Shown here: positions 17,742-23,948 of the stretch, piece by piece
Numbering within the stretch: position 1 is the stretch's first letter
How the letters are laid out: each line of letters opens with the position of its first letter
Origin: an uncultured Candidatus Saccharibacteria bacterium
GTDB taxonomy: Bacteria > Patescibacteriota > Minisyncoccia > Phycocordibacterales > CSBR16-119
Length of the DNA: 64,000 nt
Direction: 5' to 3'
Assembly: GCA_964589975.1 (NCBI GenBank)
Contig: CAZPVH010000001.1
Span: forward strand, 164,853-228,852
The notes under the pieces: model-generated
Databases searched by the model: none
The model's input: the letters and a program-made list of their open reading frames with translations, nothing else
Told to the model about the DNA's origin: nothing
Translations under genes and position numbers: made by a program

Positions 17742-17933
17742 AAAATCAATTTTAAGGCAGAATTGGATTTACATAGAAGGGTTACACTGGCTTCGCATTC
17801 ATCTACGCAATATTTAGCTGGTGTGGTTTTTATGTAGCAATAGGGAAGAATACCTGTCCTGTTGATGTTTAGTTTTAGAAAGAGTACCGTTTGCTGGTAA
17901 AAGTTTGTGTAAAGCCATGGGTCTCAAACTAAA

Positions 17934-17962
17934 AGCACCGCACTCCTCGCGGTGCTTTTAAA
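17934..17962. terminator. Bidirectional terminator
   Basis: gcaccgc actcctc gcggtgc hairpin with T-runs on both strands. Confidence 0.6.
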
Positions 17963-17980
17963 CCAAACAAAGTTGGTGTG

Positions 17981-18256
17981 CTAAATGTTATCCTTAATCC
18001 ACATAGAATGCTTGTCAGTTAGACCACCCCAAGCGGCAGCGTCACTTGTAATATTTATTACAAGCAACCGATCGTTGCTGTCAATGTATGAATTCGTGAT
18101 TGTGTCACGAACCTCTTTTGCTGACTTACCAGTCTTAATTAACCACAATGATTCTAGTGGTTTAACGAAGCCTGAGTATGTCTGAAGATGGTCCCAAAGA
18201 GCTTGATAGTTTTTTTCAGGACTACGAAGATCATAGTTAATGAGAATTGTGTTCAA
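17981..18256 (-). CDS. Hypothetical 91-aa protein at the edge of the AT-rich island
   Basis: MNTILINYDLRSPEKNYQALWDHLQTY...; N-terminal beta-strand ILINYDL is reminiscent of Cas2/VapD-like ferredoxin folds but is unverified. Confidence 0.45.
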   Translation of the reverse strand: MNTILINYDLRSPEKNYQALWDHLQTYSGFVKPLESLWLIKTGKSAKEVRDTITNSYIDSNDRLLVINITSDAAAWGGLTDKHSMWIKDNI

Positions 18257-18475
18257 GTGTCTGTTGATATCTTTACTGTTAAATGCAGACTGTCAGTGAT
18301 ATATTTGTAGTGTAGTTACATATCGGTTATTTTGAACGCGAGACGACCTGATAGAGGGTTACCAATTCGCGGAAAATGTTCAATCTGGAAAGGCTGCCTC
18401 AATATGGCAGCTTTTCGTTTATATTTTATGCTATAGGGGTTTTCTGTCAACCTTGTCAACTATGTGGAAAAGTAT

Positions 18476-18503
18476 TTGCTAACTTTTGACAAGGTAGTAT
18501 AAT
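18476..18503 (+). promoter_or_regulatory. Promoter for the LexA-like gene (leaderless; TATAAT 6 nt before the ATG) with flanking inverted repeats
   Basis: ttgcta-N16-tataat; inverted repeat CTTGTCAA (18451-18458) / TTGACAAG (18487-18494); tandem TGTCAAC x2. Confidence 0.4.
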
Positions 18504-18509
18504 GTTCAC

Positions 18510-19154
18510 ATGCATCCAATACAAGAAAAGTTACTAAAAATCATTAGTGAGAAGAATATTGGGGATCTCACACTACGTGATATCGGTGATCTAATTGCCG
18601 AAAAGTTACCTCAGAAGATTAAACACCACCTTTTTCAGCTTGAGAGGAAGGGGTTTATTGTTGTCGACAAGAAAAAAAAGTCTATCACTAGAGTGATCGG
18701 TGCAAAAAAGACTCCAAAAGAAATGTTTATTTCCTTACCTATAGTCGGATCAGCTAATTGTGGTCCTCAAACTATTTATGCCGAACAAAACATTGAAGGT
18801 TATTTGAAAGTCTCTAAAAGAATAGTTCCAAAGGCTAATAATGTATTTATACTTCGTGCTGAAGGAAATTCATTGAATAGAGCAGACATAAAAGGTAAGA
18901 GTGTAGAGGATGGTGATTTTGTCATTGTTGATAGTGAAAGTACATCTCCAAAAAATAATGATTATATTGTTTCGATAATTAGTGGCTTGGCAAATATTAA
19001 AAAATACGTGTTTGATAAAGAAAATTCACAAATTGTCCTACTCTCAGAATCTTCACAACATTTTGATCCCATATTTATACATCAAGATGATGATTTTAGG
19101 GTTAACGGTAAAGTGATTGGCGTAATTAAAAAACCTAAGTTTATTAGCCATTAG
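18510..19154 (+). CDS. LexA-like repressor (N-terminal winged-helix plus C-terminal S24 autopeptidase)
   Basis: wHTH N-domain; PIVGSANCGP cleavage-site region, S24 Ser (AEGNSL) and Lys (ANIKKY); very low GC. Confidence 0.75.
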   Translation: MHPIQEKLLKIISEKNIGDLTLRDIGDLIAEKLPQKIKHHLFQLERKGFIVVDKKKKSITRVIGAKKTPKEMFISLPIVGSANCGPQTIYAEQNIEGYLKVSKRIVPKANNVFILRAEGNSLNRADIKGKSVEDGDFVIVDSESTSPKNNDYIVSIISGLANIKKYVFDKENSQIVLLSESSQHFDPIFIHQDDDFRVNGKVIGVIKKPKFISH

Positions 19155-19162
19155 TTAGTTAA

Positions 19163-19927
19163 TTGATTATAATTACATTTATGAAAACTGTTGAGTGTAT
19201 AAAAATAAAAATTGAAAAAAAGCAGACACCTCTAGATTGGAACGATTGGAAAAATACTATCCAACAAATGGATTGTTTGACTGGCCTACAACACATCCCA
19301 GATGGTTCTATTGATTTAATTGTTACAGATCCGCCTTACGGAATAAGTAAACAACTAAATTGTAAAGGAAAGAGGCTTGGATCAACAGCTAAACTAGATT
19401 TTGATTTCGGTGAGTGGGATACTTTTAGCAAGGACTGGTTCCATATCGCCGTAAAAAAGACTCGTGGGTGGATGATGACTTTTTGTGCAAAAAAAGATGT
19501 TGGCTTTTTTATTGACACTCTAGAGAAAGAAGGCTTTATAGCTGTTGATGTATTGGTTTGGCAAAAACCTGATCCGGTCCCTCTTAATGCAAAATCACGC
19601 TTTTTAAACGCATGGGAAGCTGTTGTTATAGGTAAGCGTCCAGGTTCAACTTGGAATAGCACTTATGAGCACAATATAATCAAATGCCAAGCTCCAAAGG
19701 GTAAAAATAGATTTCATCCAACACAAAAACCAGTTGAATTGATTAAAAAACTTATATCATTGGCAACGAAAGAAGGAGATATTGTTCTTGACCCATTTAT
19801 GGGTAGCGGAACTACTGCGGTTGCATGTGTAGAATCAAAAAGAAACTATATTGGTTTTGAATTATCAAAGGAATACCACAAGATGGCGCTAAATAGAATT
19901 AAAGAGTTGCCCACTCAACTATTTTAA
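19163..19927 (+). CDS. DNA methyltransferase, beta-class (N6-adenine or N4-cytosine), M1
   Basis: motif IV LIVTDPPYG near the N-terminus, HPTQKP, motif I DIVLDPFMGSGTT near the C-terminus; 9 nt after the LexA-like stop. Confidence 0.85.
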   Translation: MIIITFMKTVECIKIKIEKKQTPLDWNDWKNTIQQMDCLTGLQHIPDGSIDLIVTDPPYGISKQLNCKGKRLGSTAKLDFDFGEWDTFSKDWFHIAVKKTRGWMMTFCAKKDVGFFIDTLEKEGFIAVDVLVWQKPDPVPLNAKSRFLNAWEAVVIGKRPGSTWNSTYEHNIIKCQAPKGKNRFHPTQKPVELIKKLISLATKEGDIVLDPFMGSGTTAVACVESKRNYIGFELSKEYHKMALNRIKELPTQLF

Positions 19928-20911
19928 TTTTTGGTCTGATGAATAAATAAGTTTTGCTTTGATATCTCGTGCGTCCTTAACAGATAAGGAGGCTTGCTTC
20001 CTTCTTATTTCTTTACCTTGATCTTTATACCTTACTTCTTTTACTTTTAATTTCTTTTTAAGTAATTTAACAATCTTTTTTGTATCTGCTTCGTATATTT
20101 TTTTTACAACAAAATCATTTTTATCAACGGTGGCAAGAATTATGCTTTTATCTGTCATGTATTTCTTCAAAACATCTTTTGAAATATCTTGAAAACTCCA
20201 ACTCGATCCTTTTGCCACTTTGTATTCATACATATTACCAAAAGCATCTGTAGCGTCATGTTTTGATTGTTCAGACTGAACCTTATGTCCTAAGCGCAAA
20301 GCTACTAAAACCTCCCAAAACTTGTTGCTAGTTAAAATGTCACTGGTGCCAACCTGCTGTTCAATTTTTAAAATAACGTCAACAATCTTTTTAATCCATT
20401 CAGAATAAATTCCAGAGCACAATCCCGTGGTTGTCTTTTTTTTGAAAGCCAGGGTTGTTTCGATCTGCCTAGGTCCCACATTGATCATTTTTCTATTATT
20501 AGTAATTCGTTTTGTAGCTTCAAATAGATACCCCGATATTATTATTCCGGGAACTTCGTAGTACCAGTCAAATACCGGAAACGGAACATTTTCATCTTGT
20601 ATGTGAGCAAAGATAACACTTTTGGCTTTGATCAATTTCTCGATTGTTGTGTCTGAAAAATCATTAAATGTCCAGGTGTGATTGGAGCTACTCTCCTTGT
20701 AATGCTTATACTCAAATTCGTTACCATCGTCGTCTTTTGCGTCTCTTGATCCTGAATGACCAGAAATAAGCTTATGATTCAACGTGTCAGCGATAAGTAC
20801 CTCAAATATCTTACTATTTGTTATAATGTCTGTAACACCGAAGGTGGCATAGAAATCAGCCTGAATTTTCTTGAGTTGCCCTATAAGGTTTTCTGTGTCA
20901 TTAGTGTCCAT
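19919..20911 (-). CDS. Putative restriction endonuclease with two tandem PD-(D/E)xK modules (single-chain pseudo-dimer)
   Basis: internal repeat: ...FEVLIADTLNHKLISG...DAKDDDGNEFEYK... and ...WEVLVALRLGHKVQSE...DATDAFGNMYEYK...; each has a D...EYK catalytic signature; flanked by two methyltransferases. Confidence 0.6.
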   Translation of the reverse strand: MDTNDTENLIGQLKKIQADFYATFGVTDIITNSKIFEVLIADTLNHKLISGHSGSRDAKDDDGNEFEYKHYKESSSNHTWTFNDFSDTTIEKLIKAKSVIFAHIQDENVPFPVFDWYYEVPGIIISGYLFEATKRITNNRKMINVGPRQIETTLAFKKKTTTGLCSGIYSEWIKKIVDVILKIEQQVGTSDILTSNKFWEVLVALRLGHKVQSEQSKHDATDAFGNMYEYKVAKGSSWSFQDISKDVLKKYMTDKSIILATVDKNDFVVKKIYEADTKKIVKLLKKKLKVKEVRYKDQGKEIRRKQASLSVKDARDIKAKLIYSSDQKLK

Positions 20912-20914
20912 ATA

Positions 20915-21736
20915 ATGAAAACTATATCAATAAAAACTAAAATAAGCACTACCGACGAAAACGCATTGATTTTTGGTGATGCAATAGCAATTTTAAAATC
21001 CCTACCTGATAATTCAGTTGATCATTGTTTTACTGATCCGCCATATAACATATCTGGATACGACAATAAGAAAAAGATAGGCTGGCTTCAGTCAAACAAG
21101 ACATGGGTTGAAGAAAAGAAATTTACAAAGATAGATGCAAAGTGGGATAAATTTTCCGACGACGATTATGTTGCTTTTACCAAAGCGTGGATATTGGAAG
21201 TTATGAGGGTTTTGAAACCAAACGGTAATATTATTATTTTCGGTTCGTATCATAATATCTATAAAATTGGTTCCATACTCCAAGATTTTGATCGAAAATT
21301 AATAAATTCTATTACATGGTATAAAAGAAATGCCTTTCCAAATGTAACGCAAAGAATGTTTTGTGAAAGCACAGAGCATATTATCTGGGCTGTAAATGAG
21401 ACACAGAAAAAAGCAAAGAATTGGAAATTTAATTATAAGGAAATGAAGGCCTTAAATGGAGGTGTCCAGATGAGAAACATGTGGGACATTGTCGCAACTC
21501 CAACATCAGAGCGAGCTCATGGTAAGCACCCATCGCAAAAGCCAATCGAGATATTAAATCGTCTAGTAATAGGATGTAGTAATAAGGGCGACGTTATTAT
21601 CGATCCATTTATGGGTAGCGGCACCTTGCCCGTTGCTGCACAGATTAATGGCCGGAAATACATTGGTATTGATAGTGAGAAGGAATTTTGTGACCTTGCT
21701 CTAAAGAGGGTTAGGGCTAAAGAAAACCGATTATAA
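20915..21736 (+). CDS. DNA methyltransferase, beta-class (N6-adenine or N4-cytosine), M2
   Basis: FTDPPYN, HPSQKP, DPFMGSGT; ATG only 3 bp from the divergent endonuclease start codon. Confidence 0.85.
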   Translation: MKTISIKTKISTTDENALIFGDAIAILKSLPDNSVDHCFTDPPYNISGYDNKKKIGWLQSNKTWVEEKKFTKIDAKWDKFSDDDYVAFTKAWILEVMRVLKPNGNIIIFGSYHNIYKIGSILQDFDRKLINSITWYKRNAFPNVTQRMFCESTEHIIWAVNETQKKAKNWKFNYKEMKALNGGVQMRNMWDIVATPTSERAHGKHPSQKPIEILNRLVIGCSNKGDVIIDPFMGSGTLPVAAQINGRKYIGIDSEKEFCDLALKRVRAKENRL

Positions 21737-21743
21737 TAAATTT

Positions 21744-22688
21744 ATGCCACTATTTAAAATATATAACAATAAAGTAACAAAAATTGAAAAACGTAATATT
21801 CTTGAAAAAGATATTCAAAAGATAATAGAAGAAAATCTTCTAGAGATATTAGATATATACTTCCTAGGTACAGAATTTGTTACTACTGATGGACGAATAG
21901 ATTCCGTAGGTTTGGACAAGCATGGGTCGCCAGTAATTATTGAATATAAGAGATCCCAAAATAATAGCGTTATAAATCAAGCTACTTGGTATCTAGAATG
22001 GCTACTTGATCATAAAGAAAAGTTTGAAAAGCTTGTTGAAGATAAGTTAAAAAAACATTTTGTTAATGAGCTAAAAGATACTATGGAGCCAGTAGATTTT
22101 CCTACAATTGATTGGATGAATCCGCGCCTTATTTGTATAGCGGAAAGTTATAATAAATTTGATCTTGGCCTCGTGAAGTTTTTACCATTTAAAATTGAAC
22201 TTTTGAAATATCGTCTCTATGATGATCTATTGTCTATCGAGTCAGAGAATATACAAAAAGGTATGAGGATTAGTGAAAGAACAAACTCATTAGCAATTGA
22301 TGAAGATAGTAAGCCTATTAGAGAATACGGTAAGGAATATTTAATAACTGATCTGTTTAAAGATAGTTGGGCAGAGAGTCGTGAGCTCTTTGAGCAAATT
22401 CGTGAGAAAATTTTGGAGTTGGATAGTAATATTGAAGAGAAAATAACAAAACTTTATATTAGTTATAAAACAGAGAATATTTTCTGTGAGATAATACCTC
22501 AAGCTAAGGGCTTATGGATCCATGTCACAATTCCTATTGATAATGTTATGAAAAACAAAATAGAACTTCATGACGTAAGCGAGAAAGGGCACTGGGGAAC
22601 AGGCGAGACAAAATTCAGAGTAGAAAAACCATCTGAGGTAGATCTCGCTGTAGATTATATTAAGCAATCTTATGAGTTTGGCTTATAG
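21744..22688 (+). CDS. NucS/RecB-like PD-(D/E)xK nuclease-domain protein with an unknown C-terminal domain
   Basis: TDGRIDSVGLDKHGSPVIIEYKR matches the NucS/DUF91 nuclease core; about 200 aa C-terminal region unassigned; 7 nt after M2. Confidence 0.55.
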   Translation: MPLFKIYNNKVTKIEKRNILEKDIQKIIEENLLEILDIYFLGTEFVTTDGRIDSVGLDKHGSPVIIEYKRSQNNSVINQATWYLEWLLDHKEKFEKLVEDKLKKHFVNELKDTMEPVDFPTIDWMNPRLICIAESYNKFDLGLVKFLPFKIELLKYRLYDDLLSIESENIQKGMRISERTNSLAIDEDSKPIREYGKEYLITDLFKDSWAESRELFEQIREKILELDSNIEEKITKLYISYKTENIFCEIIPQAKGLWIHVTIPIDNVMKNKIELHDVSEKGHWGTGETKFRVEKPSEVDLAVDYIKQSYEFGL

Positions 22689-22697
22689 TGAATCTGT

Positions 22698-23261
22698 ATG
22701 GACATATTTGCACATACGTTATGGGCGAATGCTGGGGCGAGGGGAGTGAATGCCTTCCGGAAGAAGAAAGGGAAGCCTCCTGTTATGCATGCTGGATGGA
22801 CGGGGTTCTGGGGAGTTTTCCCGGACCTGTTTGCTTTCGTGATTCCATTTGTCATCGTCATTTGGAAAGTCCTGACCGGACAGCTCGCACTGTCATCATT
22901 TGGCGGACATCACCTGCCTGTCGCCGGGTTCGACCTCGCCTCATACCTCTACCAATACAGTCACTCGCTTGTGGTGTGGCTCATTGTGTTTCTACTTGTA
23001 TGGATTATTTCCAAACGTCCGCGGTGGGAGCTACTTGGTTGGGCACTGCATATACTCATAGATATTCCGTCACATGATATCGACTTCTACCCCACGCCAT
23101 TTCTATTCCCACTTTCAGATTACCGCTTCCCGTACGGCGTTGCGTGGAGCAATATGTACTACATGATCATCAACTACTCCGCACTCCTCATCGTCTGGGG
23201 CGGGATCGCTATTTCCAAAATCCGCAAATCCCAAAAACCTAACCCTACTCAGACCATCTAA
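22698..23261 (+). CDS. YdjM-like membrane-bound metal-dependent hydrolase (DUF457 family)
   Basis: multi-TM protein with His-rich loops (HAGWTGFWG, HILIDIPSHD); moderate GC, so likely native. Confidence 0.55.
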   Translation: MDIFAHTLWANAGARGVNAFRKKKGKPPVMHAGWTGFWGVFPDLFAFVIPFVIVIWKVLTGQLALSSFGGHHLPVAGFDLASYLYQYSHSLVVWLIVFLLVWIISKRPRWELLGWALHILIDIPSHDIDFYPTPFLFPLSDYRFPYGVAWSNMYYMIINYSALLIVWGGIAISKIRKSQKPNPTQTI

Positions 23262-23317
23262 CCCTATAACTACGACCCATCCCATATACACCCACCAATA
23301 CATAACGTTATTAATCC

Positions 23318-23340
23318 CTAATTCGCGCGAATTAGCGAAT
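23318..23340. repeat. 23-bp repeat copy 1 containing the palindrome ATTCGCGCGAAT
   Basis: ctaattcgcgcgaattagcgaat; second copy at 23680-23702 with one mismatch. Confidence 0.7.
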
Positions 23341-23432
23341 GTAATAATTCGTAAACTAAGGTAGAAAAATATTGAAACAAAATTAAACAAATGTGGCTAA
23401 CGGAAATAAAAATTTGTTATAATTGATTTATT

Positions 23433-23696
23433 ATGAAGAATCTAGAGCGCATAATAAAAGCTCTTGCTAATGGCCGACGTATGGCTATCGTTAGATATTT
23501 AGGGAAGCATAAAGGTTCAACTGTCGGAGACATTGCTCGGAATATAAAGTTATCTTTTAAATCGACTTCGAAGCACCTTGCGATACTTTACGCCGCAGAG
23601 CTGGTGGACAAAGAGCAAACAAGTATTTTGGTTAAATACTTTTTACCAAAGAAGCCTCACCCACTGGTAAAGTTTATCTCTAATTCGCGCGAATAA
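23433..23696 (+). CDS. ArsR/SmtB-family winged-helix transcriptional regulator
   Basis: IVRYLGKHKGSTVGDIARNIKLSFKSTSKHLAILYAAELV HTH pattern; 87 aa. Confidence 0.65.
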   Translation: MKNLERIIKALANGRRMAIVRYLGKHKGSTVGDIARNIKLSFKSTSKHLAILYAAELVDKEQTSILVKYFLPKKPHPLVKFISNSRE

Positions 23697-23702
23697 GCGA
23701 AT
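23680..23702. repeat. 23-bp repeat copy 2 (overlaps the ArsR stop codon and abuts the GIY-YIG start)
   Basis: ctaattcgcgcgaataagcgaat. Confidence 0.7.
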
Positions 23703-23948
23703 ATGTATCATTTATATATATTGAAATGCGCTGACAATACTTTGTATACAGGTATTACGACGGATTTGAAAAGGAGAGTGGGGGAGCACAATGACGGAAA
23801 AGTTGGTGCGAAATATACGCGTGGGCGCGGACCGGTAACGGTTATGTATTCGCGGCGGTTCCGTAACCGTGCGAATGCCTCACGGGAGGAGGCGCGGATA
23901 AAAAAGCTCTCTCGGACAGACAAGTTACTTTTAGTAAAAAATATATAA
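23703..23948 (+). CDS. GIY-YIG nuclease superfamily protein (YhbQ/UPF0213-like)
   Basis: YHLYILKCADNTLYTGITTDLKRRVGEHN. Confidence 0.75.
   Translation: MYHLYILKCADNTLYTGITTDLKRRVGEHNDGKVGAKYTRGRGPVTVMYSRRFRNRANASREEARIKKLSRTDKLLLVKNI

Follow-up and report, generated by a model that had tools for sequence, protein, structure and literature searches.

A mobile restriction-modification cassette led by a LexA-like repressor gene, and the probable damage-responsive control of its DNA methyltransferase

Introduction

What is a LexA-like repressor gene doing at the head of a tight cluster of DNA methyltransferase and nuclease genes? The question is raised by a 64,000-nucleotide stretch of DNA (hereafter the window) from an uncultured Candidatus Saccharibacteria bacterium of the Patescibacteria (contig CAZPVH010000001.1, positions 164,853 to 228,852), in which a low-GC interval between sppA (Peptidase_S49) and a ydjM-like gene holds five tightly packed open reading frames (ORFs) together with a sixth, small gene. 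An earlier note on this DNA read the five ORFs as encoding a LexA-like repressor, two β-class DNA methyltransferases (MTases; here M1 and M2), a nuclease composed of two PD-(D/E)xK modules (R) and a second, NucS-like nuclease, and it suggested that restriction, or an abortive response, is here wired to DNA damage.

Much of that description stands. All five ORFs are found where the note placed them, and searches of the island proteins with hidden Markov models from Pfam and PADLOC uphold its domain calls. The spacing it reported is likewise correct, in that the 3' ends of M1 and R share 9 bp, the start codons of R and M2 lie 3 bp apart, and 7 nt separate M2 from the NucS-like gene. The 9-nt gap given between the lexA-like gene and M1 holds for a start at 19163; M1 most likely begins at the ATG at 19181, which yields a protein of 248 amino acids (aa), the same length as protein P0161, and widens the gap to a likelier 26 nt. 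The fall in GC content is real but milder than the ~30% first given (0.316–0.361 for the genes, as against 0.455 for the window and 0.48–0.50 for sppA and ydjM), and the sixth gene, on the minus strand next to sppA, had been missed.

As to what the arrangement means, we consider it likely that positions 18384–21738 constitute a horizontally transferred Type II (IIT/IIA-like) restriction-modification (R-M) cassette whose M1 operon is under LexA-type, damage-responsive control. Judged from its sequence, the LexA-like product would then be, with moderate confidence on our part, a cassette-borne autorepressor of the MTase-headed operon that responds to DNA damage, as opposed to a trigger of restriction.

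A LexA-like repressor gene that travels with methyltransferases

The LexA-like protein aligns across residues 23–208 with crystal structures of Escherichia coli LexA (E = 1e-10), an alignment in which Cys84-Gly85 falls at the position of the Ala84-Gly85 cleavage site and in which Ser121 and Lys164 correspond to Ser119 and Lys156, respectively. Cys84-Gly85 is thus the predicted site of self-cleavage and Ser121/Lys164 the predicted catalytic dyad, and the C-G dipeptide, the serine and the lysine are invariant in 22/22 members of the family. UmuD also uses a Cys-Gly dipeptide. The score with PF01726 is 16.9 bits (cut-off 23.7), Pfam sees the S24 domain only, and the whole protein reaches 95.7 bits with the TIGR00498 equivalog model, under its cut-off of 110.95.

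The gene moves as part of a larger unit. A locus from a Paceibacterota metagenome-assembled genome (MAG; L008) matches the window at 83% DNA identity across 3375 bp, and this match is confined to the 3.35-kb cassette; none of the proteins flanking the cassette in the window is encoded in the L008 flanks. The GC content of the cassette is 0.347, and that of the lexA-like gene itself 0.329. Because one block comprising the promoter, the lexA-like gene, M1, R and M2 recurs in another genome between unrelated flanks, the arrangement is more than a matter of chance. A prophage or plasmid origin is not indicated, since R has no match in plasmid collections and the LexA-like protein finds only distant relatives, at less than 36% identity, in phage collections.

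How general is the association of this regulator with MTase genes? Across 64 species-level genomes or loci that carry the R family of nucleases, M1 is present in 26, and a LexA gene lies beside M1 in nine of these 26 M1-type cassettes, in four of which it is fused in frame to M1. The fusions (L003, L023, L040 and L065) encode proteins of 444 aa with LexA_DNA_bind, S24 and MTase domains in succession, the same functions that the window keeps in two separate genes. No LexA gene was found in any of the nuclease loci that lack M1.

A search with one LexA-M1 fusion then recovered about 100 LexA-S24-MTase fusions among the best 120 matches, 430–537 aa in length and drawn from several MTase subfamilies. 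Such proteins are abundant in Patescibacteria, where NCBI labels them simply "transcriptional repressor LexA" (for example L003/L011 6975–8309, L023, L040, L065 and L072–L077). The Ala-Gly site, the serine and the lysine are retained in all 36 of the fusions examined (36/36). The neighbourhoods of the fusion genes are those of other R-M systems: in one, a MamI-type restriction endonuclease (REase) is accompanied by an HTH_3 C protein; in another, a C protein accompanies an unknown REase; and in a third, two MTases occur together with an unknown nuclease and a DUF5655 gene.

The LexA-like protein of the window is of a second LexA type, distinct from the canonical LexA of the fusions, with a family of its own that numbers 1799 matches. 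Here, too, the MTase is close by. The three close relatives that we examined all lie 18–27 nt upstream of an MTase gene, two of them ahead of a C5 MTase followed by a C-protein/REase pair and the third ahead of a 524-aa N6_N4 MTase and then a HinfI-type REase. We extended the survey to 80 further metagenomic loci, assigning the downstream genes to Pfam families and placing the LexA-like proteins on a neighbor-joining tree. In the clade that contains the window protein, a DNA MTase gene stands directly downstream in 23 of 29 assessable loci, and one more has a vsr gene in that place. The MTases belong to the C5, D12, Eco57I/TaqI-like, MmeI-type, N6_Mtase and N6_N4 classes, and the MTase gene always follows the lexA-like gene on the same strand, at a distance of 5–35 nt. 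These classes are interleaved on the tree, which implies that the regulator has recombined repeatedly with different enzymes. By this phylogenetic and gene-order evidence, the lexA-like clade of the window is dedicated to MTase genes and appears portable across at least six MTase classes.

In clades that are more distant, at 50–58% identity, the LexA-like gene precedes mscL (19 loci) or other genes. The mscL-linked loci are L113, L115, L116, L120–L124, L126, L130, L133–L136, L138, L140 and L142–L144, and the position upstream of mscL probably represents the chromosomal setting of lexA in these bacteria of the Candidate Phyla Radiation (CPR). It is against this background that the alternative reading of the window gene as the genome's ordinary lexA must be set. 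The protein shares with LexA, and with phage CI-type S24 repressors, the order of its domains, the position of its cleavage site and its Ser/Lys dyad, and it presumably shares autoregulation with them as well. It differs from SOS LexA in falling below the TIGR00498 cut-off, in residing on a mobile R-M cassette, in belonging to an MTase-dedicated clade, and in having no boxes at other genes within the 64 kb; the window likewise contains neither a second lexA nor further clusters of operators. Co-transfer with the L008 cassette, linkage to M1 and membership of a separate clade together identify the lexA-like gene as a conserved and functionally linked part of the cassette, as the earlier note had supposed, and not as the regulator of the genome at large in its usual context.

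The promoter module

The DNA ahead of the lexA-like gene is compactly organized. The inverted repeat ACCTTGTCAA / TTGACAAGGT, whose arms are 100% complementary, overlaps the promoter, and its 9-mer is found at no other place in the 64 kb. The ATG follows the -10 hexamer by only 6 nt, which implies a leaderless mRNA. A DnaA-box-like element, TTTTCCACA, adjoins the -35 hexamer, and a hairpin with a T-run at the left edge (18388–18416) probably insulates the cassette from upstream transcription; L008 and most loci of the R-M-linked clade have a GC-rich hairpin with a T-run at the equivalent place.

This layout recurs when 30 distinct promoters of the clade, lying ahead of unrelated MTases, are compared. 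A -10-like hexamer ends 6–8 nt ahead of the ATG in 26/30, TTGACA lies within the spacer in 23/30, the upstream GTCAA...GTCA tandem is present in 27/30, and a DnaA-box-like TT[ATG]TCCACA is present in 25/30, against a total of two such boxes in the whole 64-kb window. Canonical LexA genes that are fused to MTases display the same promoter architecture, with direct repeats of TTTCGGT replacing TGTCAA and with CTGTGGATAAC near -50; a DnaA-box-like match precedes most of the canonical LexA genes that are fused or adjacent to an MTase. The mscL-linked relatives carry the same TGTCAA / TGTGGAAAAC / TTGACA motifs, but ahead of a leader of ~50 nt.

The DnaA-box-like element, usually in the form CTGTGGATAAC, is found at L003, L006, L023, L040, L074–L077 and L082–L100, and so accompanies two LexA types whose operator repeats differ. 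A coupling of the promoter to DnaA or to replication is possible.

Near the starts of R and M2, and near the start of the NucS-like gene, the window contains no operator motif. Direct LexA control of the nucleases of this locus is rejected on that ground.

The restriction-modification core

M1 and M2 are both β-class enzymes by the order of their motifs, with DPPY at residue 50 and FMGSGT at residue 206 of M1, and at residues 41 and 232, respectively, of M2. Their PF01555 scores of 141.6 and 161.8 bits far exceed the cut-off of 26.7, and the two are 26% identical to one another. M2 also matches the CcrM model at E = 6.8e-68, with a score that is far below the cut-off of that model.

Between them lies the nuclease R, the two halves of which are paralogous (43% identity across 84 aa, E = 4e-15). 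Each half has an intact active site of the form D-x(9)-E-Y-K, comprising D57/E67/K69 and D219/E229/K231, and these residues vary little or not at all across 24 homologues. The profiles divide between the halves: Pfam PvuII (PF09225) matches only the C-terminal half, at residues 186–303 (25.3 bits, cut-off 25), and PADLOC REase_II matches the N-terminal half, at residues 10–102. A sequence search of R against the PDB gave no significant match, and it was the fold search alone that found PvuII. The AlphaFold2 model (pLDDT 90.5, pTM 0.86) has as its best PDB match in Foldseek the engineered single-chain PvuII, 3KSK (E = 2.7e-15, TM-score 0.62–0.66 over 336 columns); PvuII monomers superpose on each half of R, and single PvuII chains match at E = 5e-7. 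The earlier note had asked whether the nuclease is a pseudo-dimer, and on the evidence of the predicted structure R is a natural single-chain, PvuII-like pseudo-dimer. Profiles, the alignment of the halves and the motifs bear out, too, its description of a two-module, single-chain PD-(D/E)xK nuclease flanked by two β-class MTases.

Two diverged modules, each with its own active site, lead one to expect an asymmetric site and cleavage of both strands. If sequence and model are a fair guide, R should recognize such a site and cut both of its strands, with M1 and M2 protecting one strand each. Were R to behave in this respect as a Type IIT enzyme, mutation of a single active site should give strand-specific nicking enzymes of new specificity. 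The features of the locus are collected in Table 1.

Table 1. Features of the low-GC interval, in window coordinates
Feature	Position	Strand	Basis and remarks
Gene of phrog_1090 family, 91 aa, weakly Cas2-like	17981..18256	-	phrog_1090 E 3.2e-24 (phage family, unknown function); PADLOC Cas2b E 0.005; GC 0.388
Mobile four-gene cassette (promoter module, lexA-like, M1, R, M2)	18384..21738	.	Sole stretch of the window matching L008
Terminator-like hairpin with T-run, left edge of cassette	18388..18416	+	11-pair stem, T-rich tail
Upstream candidate operator, tandem TGTCAA-CCT-TGTCAA	18445..18459	+	18450-18459 is left arm of perfect 10-bp inverted repeat
DnaA-box-like element TTTTCCACA	18463..18471	-	Just upstream of -35 hexamer
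Promoter of lexA-like/M1 operon: -35 TTGCTA, 16-nt spacer, -10 TATAAT	18476..18503	+	Promoter scan, 10/12
Promoter-proximal candidate operator TTGACAAGGT	18486..18495	+	In -35/-10 spacer; right arm of inverted repeat (inverted-repeat analysis)
LexA-like repressor, 214 aa: winged-helix N-terminal domain, S24 autopeptidase domain	18510..19154	+	Pfam Peptidase_S24 E 1.6e-18
M1, β-class (DPPY) N6A/N4C DNA methyltransferase, 248 aa	19181..19927	+	N6_N4_Mtase E 4.8e-41; PADLOC MTase_II E 1.4e-54; alternative TTG start 19163
R, single-chain tandem PvuII-like restriction endonuclease, 330 aa	19919..20911	-	Paralogous halves; PvuII/REase_II profiles; AlphaFold2 fold match
Terminator-like hairpin within 3' end of R gene, ~55 nt past M1 stop	19982..20010	+	11-pair stem, T-rich tail; putative function
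M2, β-class (DPPY) CcrM/HinfI-like DNA methyltransferase, 273 aa, divergent from R	20915..21736	+	N6_N4_Mtase E 3.1e-47; PADLOC MTase_II E 8.3e-76
PDC-S18 candidate defence gene: NucS/Shedu-like PD-(D/E)xK domain, linker, DUF5655	21744..22688	+	PADLOC PDC-S18 E 2.9e-81, residues 2-311

Proposed regulation and its rivals

With the domain identities, the fold, the conservation of catalytic residues, the mobility of the cassette, the clade-wide linkage and fusion of LexA and MTase genes, and the architecture of promoter and repeats as the observed framework, we infer DNA binding at the repeats, self-cleavage, a dependence on RecA and the direction of the physiological effect. In the circuit we envisage, a repressor dimer would bind the TGTCAA/TTGACA repeats lying beside and within its own leaderless promoter, holding transcription of the lexA-like gene and M1 at a low maintenance level. 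Upon entry into a naive host, which has no repressor, M1 would first be produced at full rate, a form of establishment timer analogous to that of C proteins and MTase-repressor fusions. DNA damage, of which breaks cut by R itself at under-methylated sites are one form, would subsequently give rise to RecA filaments and so to self-cleavage at Cys84-Gly85 by Ser121/Lys164; loss of the repressor would free the promoter, and methyltransferase output would rise. As M1 and R converge with an overlap of 9 bp, stronger transcription of M1 may interfere with that of R, and convergent transcription might in this way dampen the nuclease as well. The net effect would be a damage-sensing feedback that alleviates self-restriction.

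The direction of this proposed response, toward modification and away from cleavage, is suggested by gene order. Invariably it is the MTase gene that the lexA-like gene and its candidate operators accompany, with no operator near R/M2 or the NucS-like gene, so that more methylation is the likelier output of LexA cleavage. The suggestion of the earlier note that restriction or an abortive response is wired to damage at this locus is accordingly not upheld, as the LexA module heads an MTase gene and no operator stands near the nucleases.

Several observations weigh against our interpretation. To begin with, 17 of the 26 M1-type cassettes have no LexA gene at all, and since they evidently work without one, the LexA module must be an accessory. 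The candidate operators are also unusual, in that half-sites ~40 bp apart, or direct repeats of 9 bp, make an atypical LexA box. TTGACA is in addition the consensus of a -35 hexamer, and some of the repeats could be promoter elements. There is a divergent promoter-like match at 18450–18423, and a TATAAT at 19167–19172 on the plus strand, 8 nt ahead of the M1 ATG, could form part of a second, leaderless promoter from which M1 is expressed. Because the same motifs lie ahead of the mscL-linked relatives, the cassette repressor and a host LexA could cross-regulate one another, and the cassette copy might act on host genes. Finally, two relatives have a nuclease activity encoded within the LexA-led operon as well (L080, HinfI-type; L102, MmeI-type), so the output of derepression is not always methylation alone, and damage-induced defence might operate in the family at large.

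In the 17 M1 cassettes that lack LexA, no alternative regulator is consistently found upstream; serine recombinases, assorted nuclease-like ORFs or nothing at all occupy that position.

The last of the points above leads to the alternative that best survives, which is that of damage-induced defence. Here the LexA-like protein would silence restriction, or the R-M genes together with the NucS-like PDC-S18 gene, until damage or phage infection leads to cleavage of the repressor and switches the nucleases on in an inducible or abortive response. The conserved autocleavage residues fit such a system, as do the order lexA-like, M, HinfI REase in L080 and the lexA-like gene ahead of an MmeI-type R-M fusion in L102; and at this locus PDC-S18 starts a mere 7 nt past M2, with DUF5655 genes recurring beside other R-M systems (L030, L041 and L076/77). 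Yet the LexA module heads an MTase gene here and in most relatives, where R is convergent or under a C protein of its own, and no operator motif accompanies either the divergent R/M2 starts or PDC-S18. PDC-S18 is missing, moreover, from the closest cassette and from 62/64 loci, and a rise in M relative to R protects DNA; it does not attack it. We consider this alternative unlikely for the present locus.

A simpler circuit would dispense with damage altogether. Many S24 repressors use the S24 domain for dimerization, and the LexA-like protein could be a plain dimeric autorepressor that stands in for a C protein or for an SsoII-type N-terminal domain, timing the MTase during establishment and using its S24 domain for dimerization only. 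Its place as the first gene of the M operon, behind a leaderless promoter that is overlapped by operators, does resemble the circuits of C proteins and MTase-repressor fusions (PMC12707154). What such a scheme does not anticipate is that the cleavage dipeptide and the Ser/Lys dyad are invariant in both LexA types, in the separate proteins and in the fused, which would be unexpected if selection were for dimerization only. We regard it, too, as unlikely.

The proposal that the lexA-like gene is the ordinary SOS regulator of the host, with R-M cassettes integrating just downstream of it and the adjacency devoid of functional meaning, draws on the distant relatives with the same promoter motifs in their conserved position upstream of mscL, but it is very improbable and indeed largely refuted, given that the gene has the low GC of the cassette and moves with it between unrelated flanks, that the R-M-linked proteins form their own clade and have repeatedly fused in frame to MTases, and that the MTase gene always follows immediately on the same strand.

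Relation to known systems

The autorepressor model that we prefer is best judged beside the systems it resembles. The R-M core falls within a known layout, that of Type IIT, and it is the LexA-type controller module that is unusual. The single-chain Type IIT enzymes Mva1269I, BtsCI, AciI, BsrI, BssSI and BsrBI have one nuclease with two catalytic sites and two MTases, one for each strand of an asymmetric site (PMC4081073). The contention that a single-chain, two-site nuclease with two MTases represents a new logic therefore fails, as it is the published definition of a single-chain Type IIT system (PMC4081073). Both these enzymes and the heterodimeric ones of the BbvCI/BmgBI type resemble the window in having two different catalytic sites and two MTases; the window differs in that both of its modules are paralogous and PvuII-like and together form a pseudo-dimer. 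In Mva1269I, by comparison, the two domains are unrelated to each other.

The likeness of R to PvuII and to the single-chain 3KSK extends to the fold and the D..E-x-K active site. PvuII is a homodimer of ~157-aa subunits that acts on a palindrome, whereas R is a tandem of two non-identical modules, for which an asymmetric site is expected; R is a natural 330-aa fusion of diverged halves, 18–22% identical to PvuII, and is partnered by two DPPY MTases. In the PvuII system, one N4C MTase is accompanied by a C protein. In this sense R is a natural counterpart of a protein that has otherwise been made by engineering.

With regard to control, C proteins and the MTase-repressor fusions of SsoII, Ecl18kI, EcoRII and MspI share with the proposed circuit a dedicated, cassette-borne factor, operators over its own promoter, and autogenous regulation of R-M genes (PMC12707154). 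In the MTase-repressor fusions the repressor domain is carried on the N-terminus of the MTase, as it is in the window's relatives L003, L023, L040 and L065. A C protein is a small Xre-type helix-turn-helix (HTH) protein that binds C-boxes and whose gene lies upstream of the REase gene and is transcribed together with it, whereas the regulator of the window joins a LexA winged helix to an S24 domain and heads the M gene. The two kinds of regulator are often found together in the window's relatives, with a classical HTH_3 C gene on the R side of a locus that also has a LexA-MTase gene. What the LexA-like protein adds to the C-protein scheme is a conserved self-cleavage apparatus, and with it a possible input from DNA damage.

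A precedent for coupling restriction to damage exists in Type I systems, in which restriction is alleviated after DNA damage through degradation of HsdR by ClpXP (PMC12707154). The proposed logic is the same, namely to lessen the danger of self-restriction once damage and repair have given rise to unmodified sites (PMC12707154). The means would differ: Type I alleviation is proteolysis of the restriction subunit, while the window's Type II system would act by a transcriptional rise in MTase that follows cleavage of a repressor.

Reviews of R-M systems from 2013, 2014 and 2025 recognize C proteins, HTH-MTase fusions, promoter methylation and antisense RNA, with no LexA/S24 regulator among them (PMC4081073; PMC12707154). 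Our literature search found no paper on LexA-controlled R-M systems or on LexA-MTase fusions; a study of the SOS network of Patescibacteria (Sanchez-Osuna, Barbe and Erill, 2017, Environ Microbiol 19:3465), which lay outside the coverage of the search, might overlap with the present work. We would tentatively generalize, in a claim that we regard as quite possible while stopping short of calling it probable, that autoproteolytic repressors of the LexA family, separate or fused to MTases, are a widespread and unrecognized class of R-M controller in Patescibacteria, a portable module that lies ahead of at least six MTase classes and would wire methylation to RecA-sensed damage and possibly to the status of DnaA or replication. 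If this is true, Type II systems gain a transcriptional counterpart of restriction alleviation, and a fifth kind of R-M regulation, with a built-in sensor of DNA damage, joins the four now recognized. It would also show how selfish or defensive nucleases can spare hosts with tiny genomes and limited repair, such as CPR bacteria, and it would offer a concrete, testable circuit for the control of autoimmunity in Type II systems. The LexA-MTase fusions are an unusual architecture in their own right, since damage could sever the DNA-binding domain from the enzyme.

Neighbouring genes

The NucS-like gene just past M2 had been counted as part of the module, a status that it does not keep. Its product is matched end to end by the PADLOC model PDC-S18, a candidate defence family already catalogued, and the gene is absent from L008, the closest cassette, as well as from 62 of the 64 nuclease loci; its candidacy as a conserved third component of the system is rejected on account of these absences. 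Pfam identifies DUF5655 (E = 1e-12) and NucS_C (E = 1e-4) in the protein. The predicted structure (pLDDT 87.6, with a disordered linker at residues 173–195) resembles EndoMS/NucS (E = 4e-5) and the Shedu nuclease SduA in its N-terminal part, and the C-terminal domain, whose structure the earlier note had proposed predicting, proves to be a DUF5655 domain with a fold similar to YjbR and DUF1801. A literature search for PDC-S18 found no paper, and one for DUF5655 a single paper that mentions it; PDC-S18 has candidate status in PADLOC, and to that status the window adds the predicted NucS/Shedu-like fold, in a gene that is here a mere neighbour of an R-M cassette. PDC-S18 is thus a loosely linked neighbour within a defence island, possibly co-transcribed with M2, and it and the phrog_1090 gene are independent island neighbours of the cassette.

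PDC-S18/DUF5655-type genes abut other R-M systems elsewhere (L030 2988–3914, L041 4718–5632, L076 7799–8725 and L077 7635–8561). In L030 such a gene occupies the usual place of LexA upstream of M1, and in L076/77 it forms an operon with a putative REase gene. PD-(D/E)xK-like ORFs of other kinds stand ahead of M1 in L022 and L024.

The phrog_1090 gene belongs to the low-GC interval and lies between sppA and the cassette, outside the latter, with no counterpart in L008. On the other side, the right flank (22698–23948) is host-like in GC content, and its products are a protein that matches YdjM weakly (E = 2e-4, under the cut-off), an ArsR-type HTH protein and a small GIY-YIG protein. In E. coli, ydjM is a LexA-regulated gene; no operator motif was found ahead of the ydjM-like gene in the window. 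A scan at Rfam gathering thresholds and a tRNA scan detected no RNA genes in the window.

Large serine recombinases adjoin several of the related R-M cassettes (L013 7699–9060, L014 2860–4212, L072 8763–10289, L075 4320–5819, L082 2956–4053 and 8053–9327, and L083 6500–7906), and L082 has an IS110 transposase in addition. Recombinases and a transposase in these positions are consistent with mobility of the cassettes.

Distribution of the nuclease family

The tandem-nuclease family to which R belongs comprises 481 matches, nearly all of them 320–335 aa in length and all annotated as hypothetical. Its range takes in CPR and DPANN lineages, Nitrosopumilus, Prochlorococcus, Pelagibacter, Clostridia and Cytophagales. 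Among relatives that carry a name, the nearest are Paceibacterota and Parcubacteria MAGs. The order M2<>R><M1 is seen in 24/64 loci (24 of the 26 with M1), across CPR, DPANN, Nitrosopumilus and Zixibacteria; at other loci R is paired with an M2-like MTase, which is either a protein by itself or part of a larger fusion.

Two Cytophagales MAGs have the tandem-nuclease gene broken into two ORFs by a frameshift or insertion (L061 5947–6991 and L068 5938–7219), next to an intact fused MTase of ~880 aa, which looks like a decaying REase whose MTase has been retained. In Lachnospiraceae (L050–L053, L055 and L056, including the cultured Bovifimicola ammoniilytica and Petralouisia muris) neither M1 nor M2 adjoins the tandem nuclease, and a protein of ~960 aa with a weak MTase match is encoded ~2.9 kb away. 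For these cultured carriers, existing methylomes could reveal the recognition site of the tandem nuclease.

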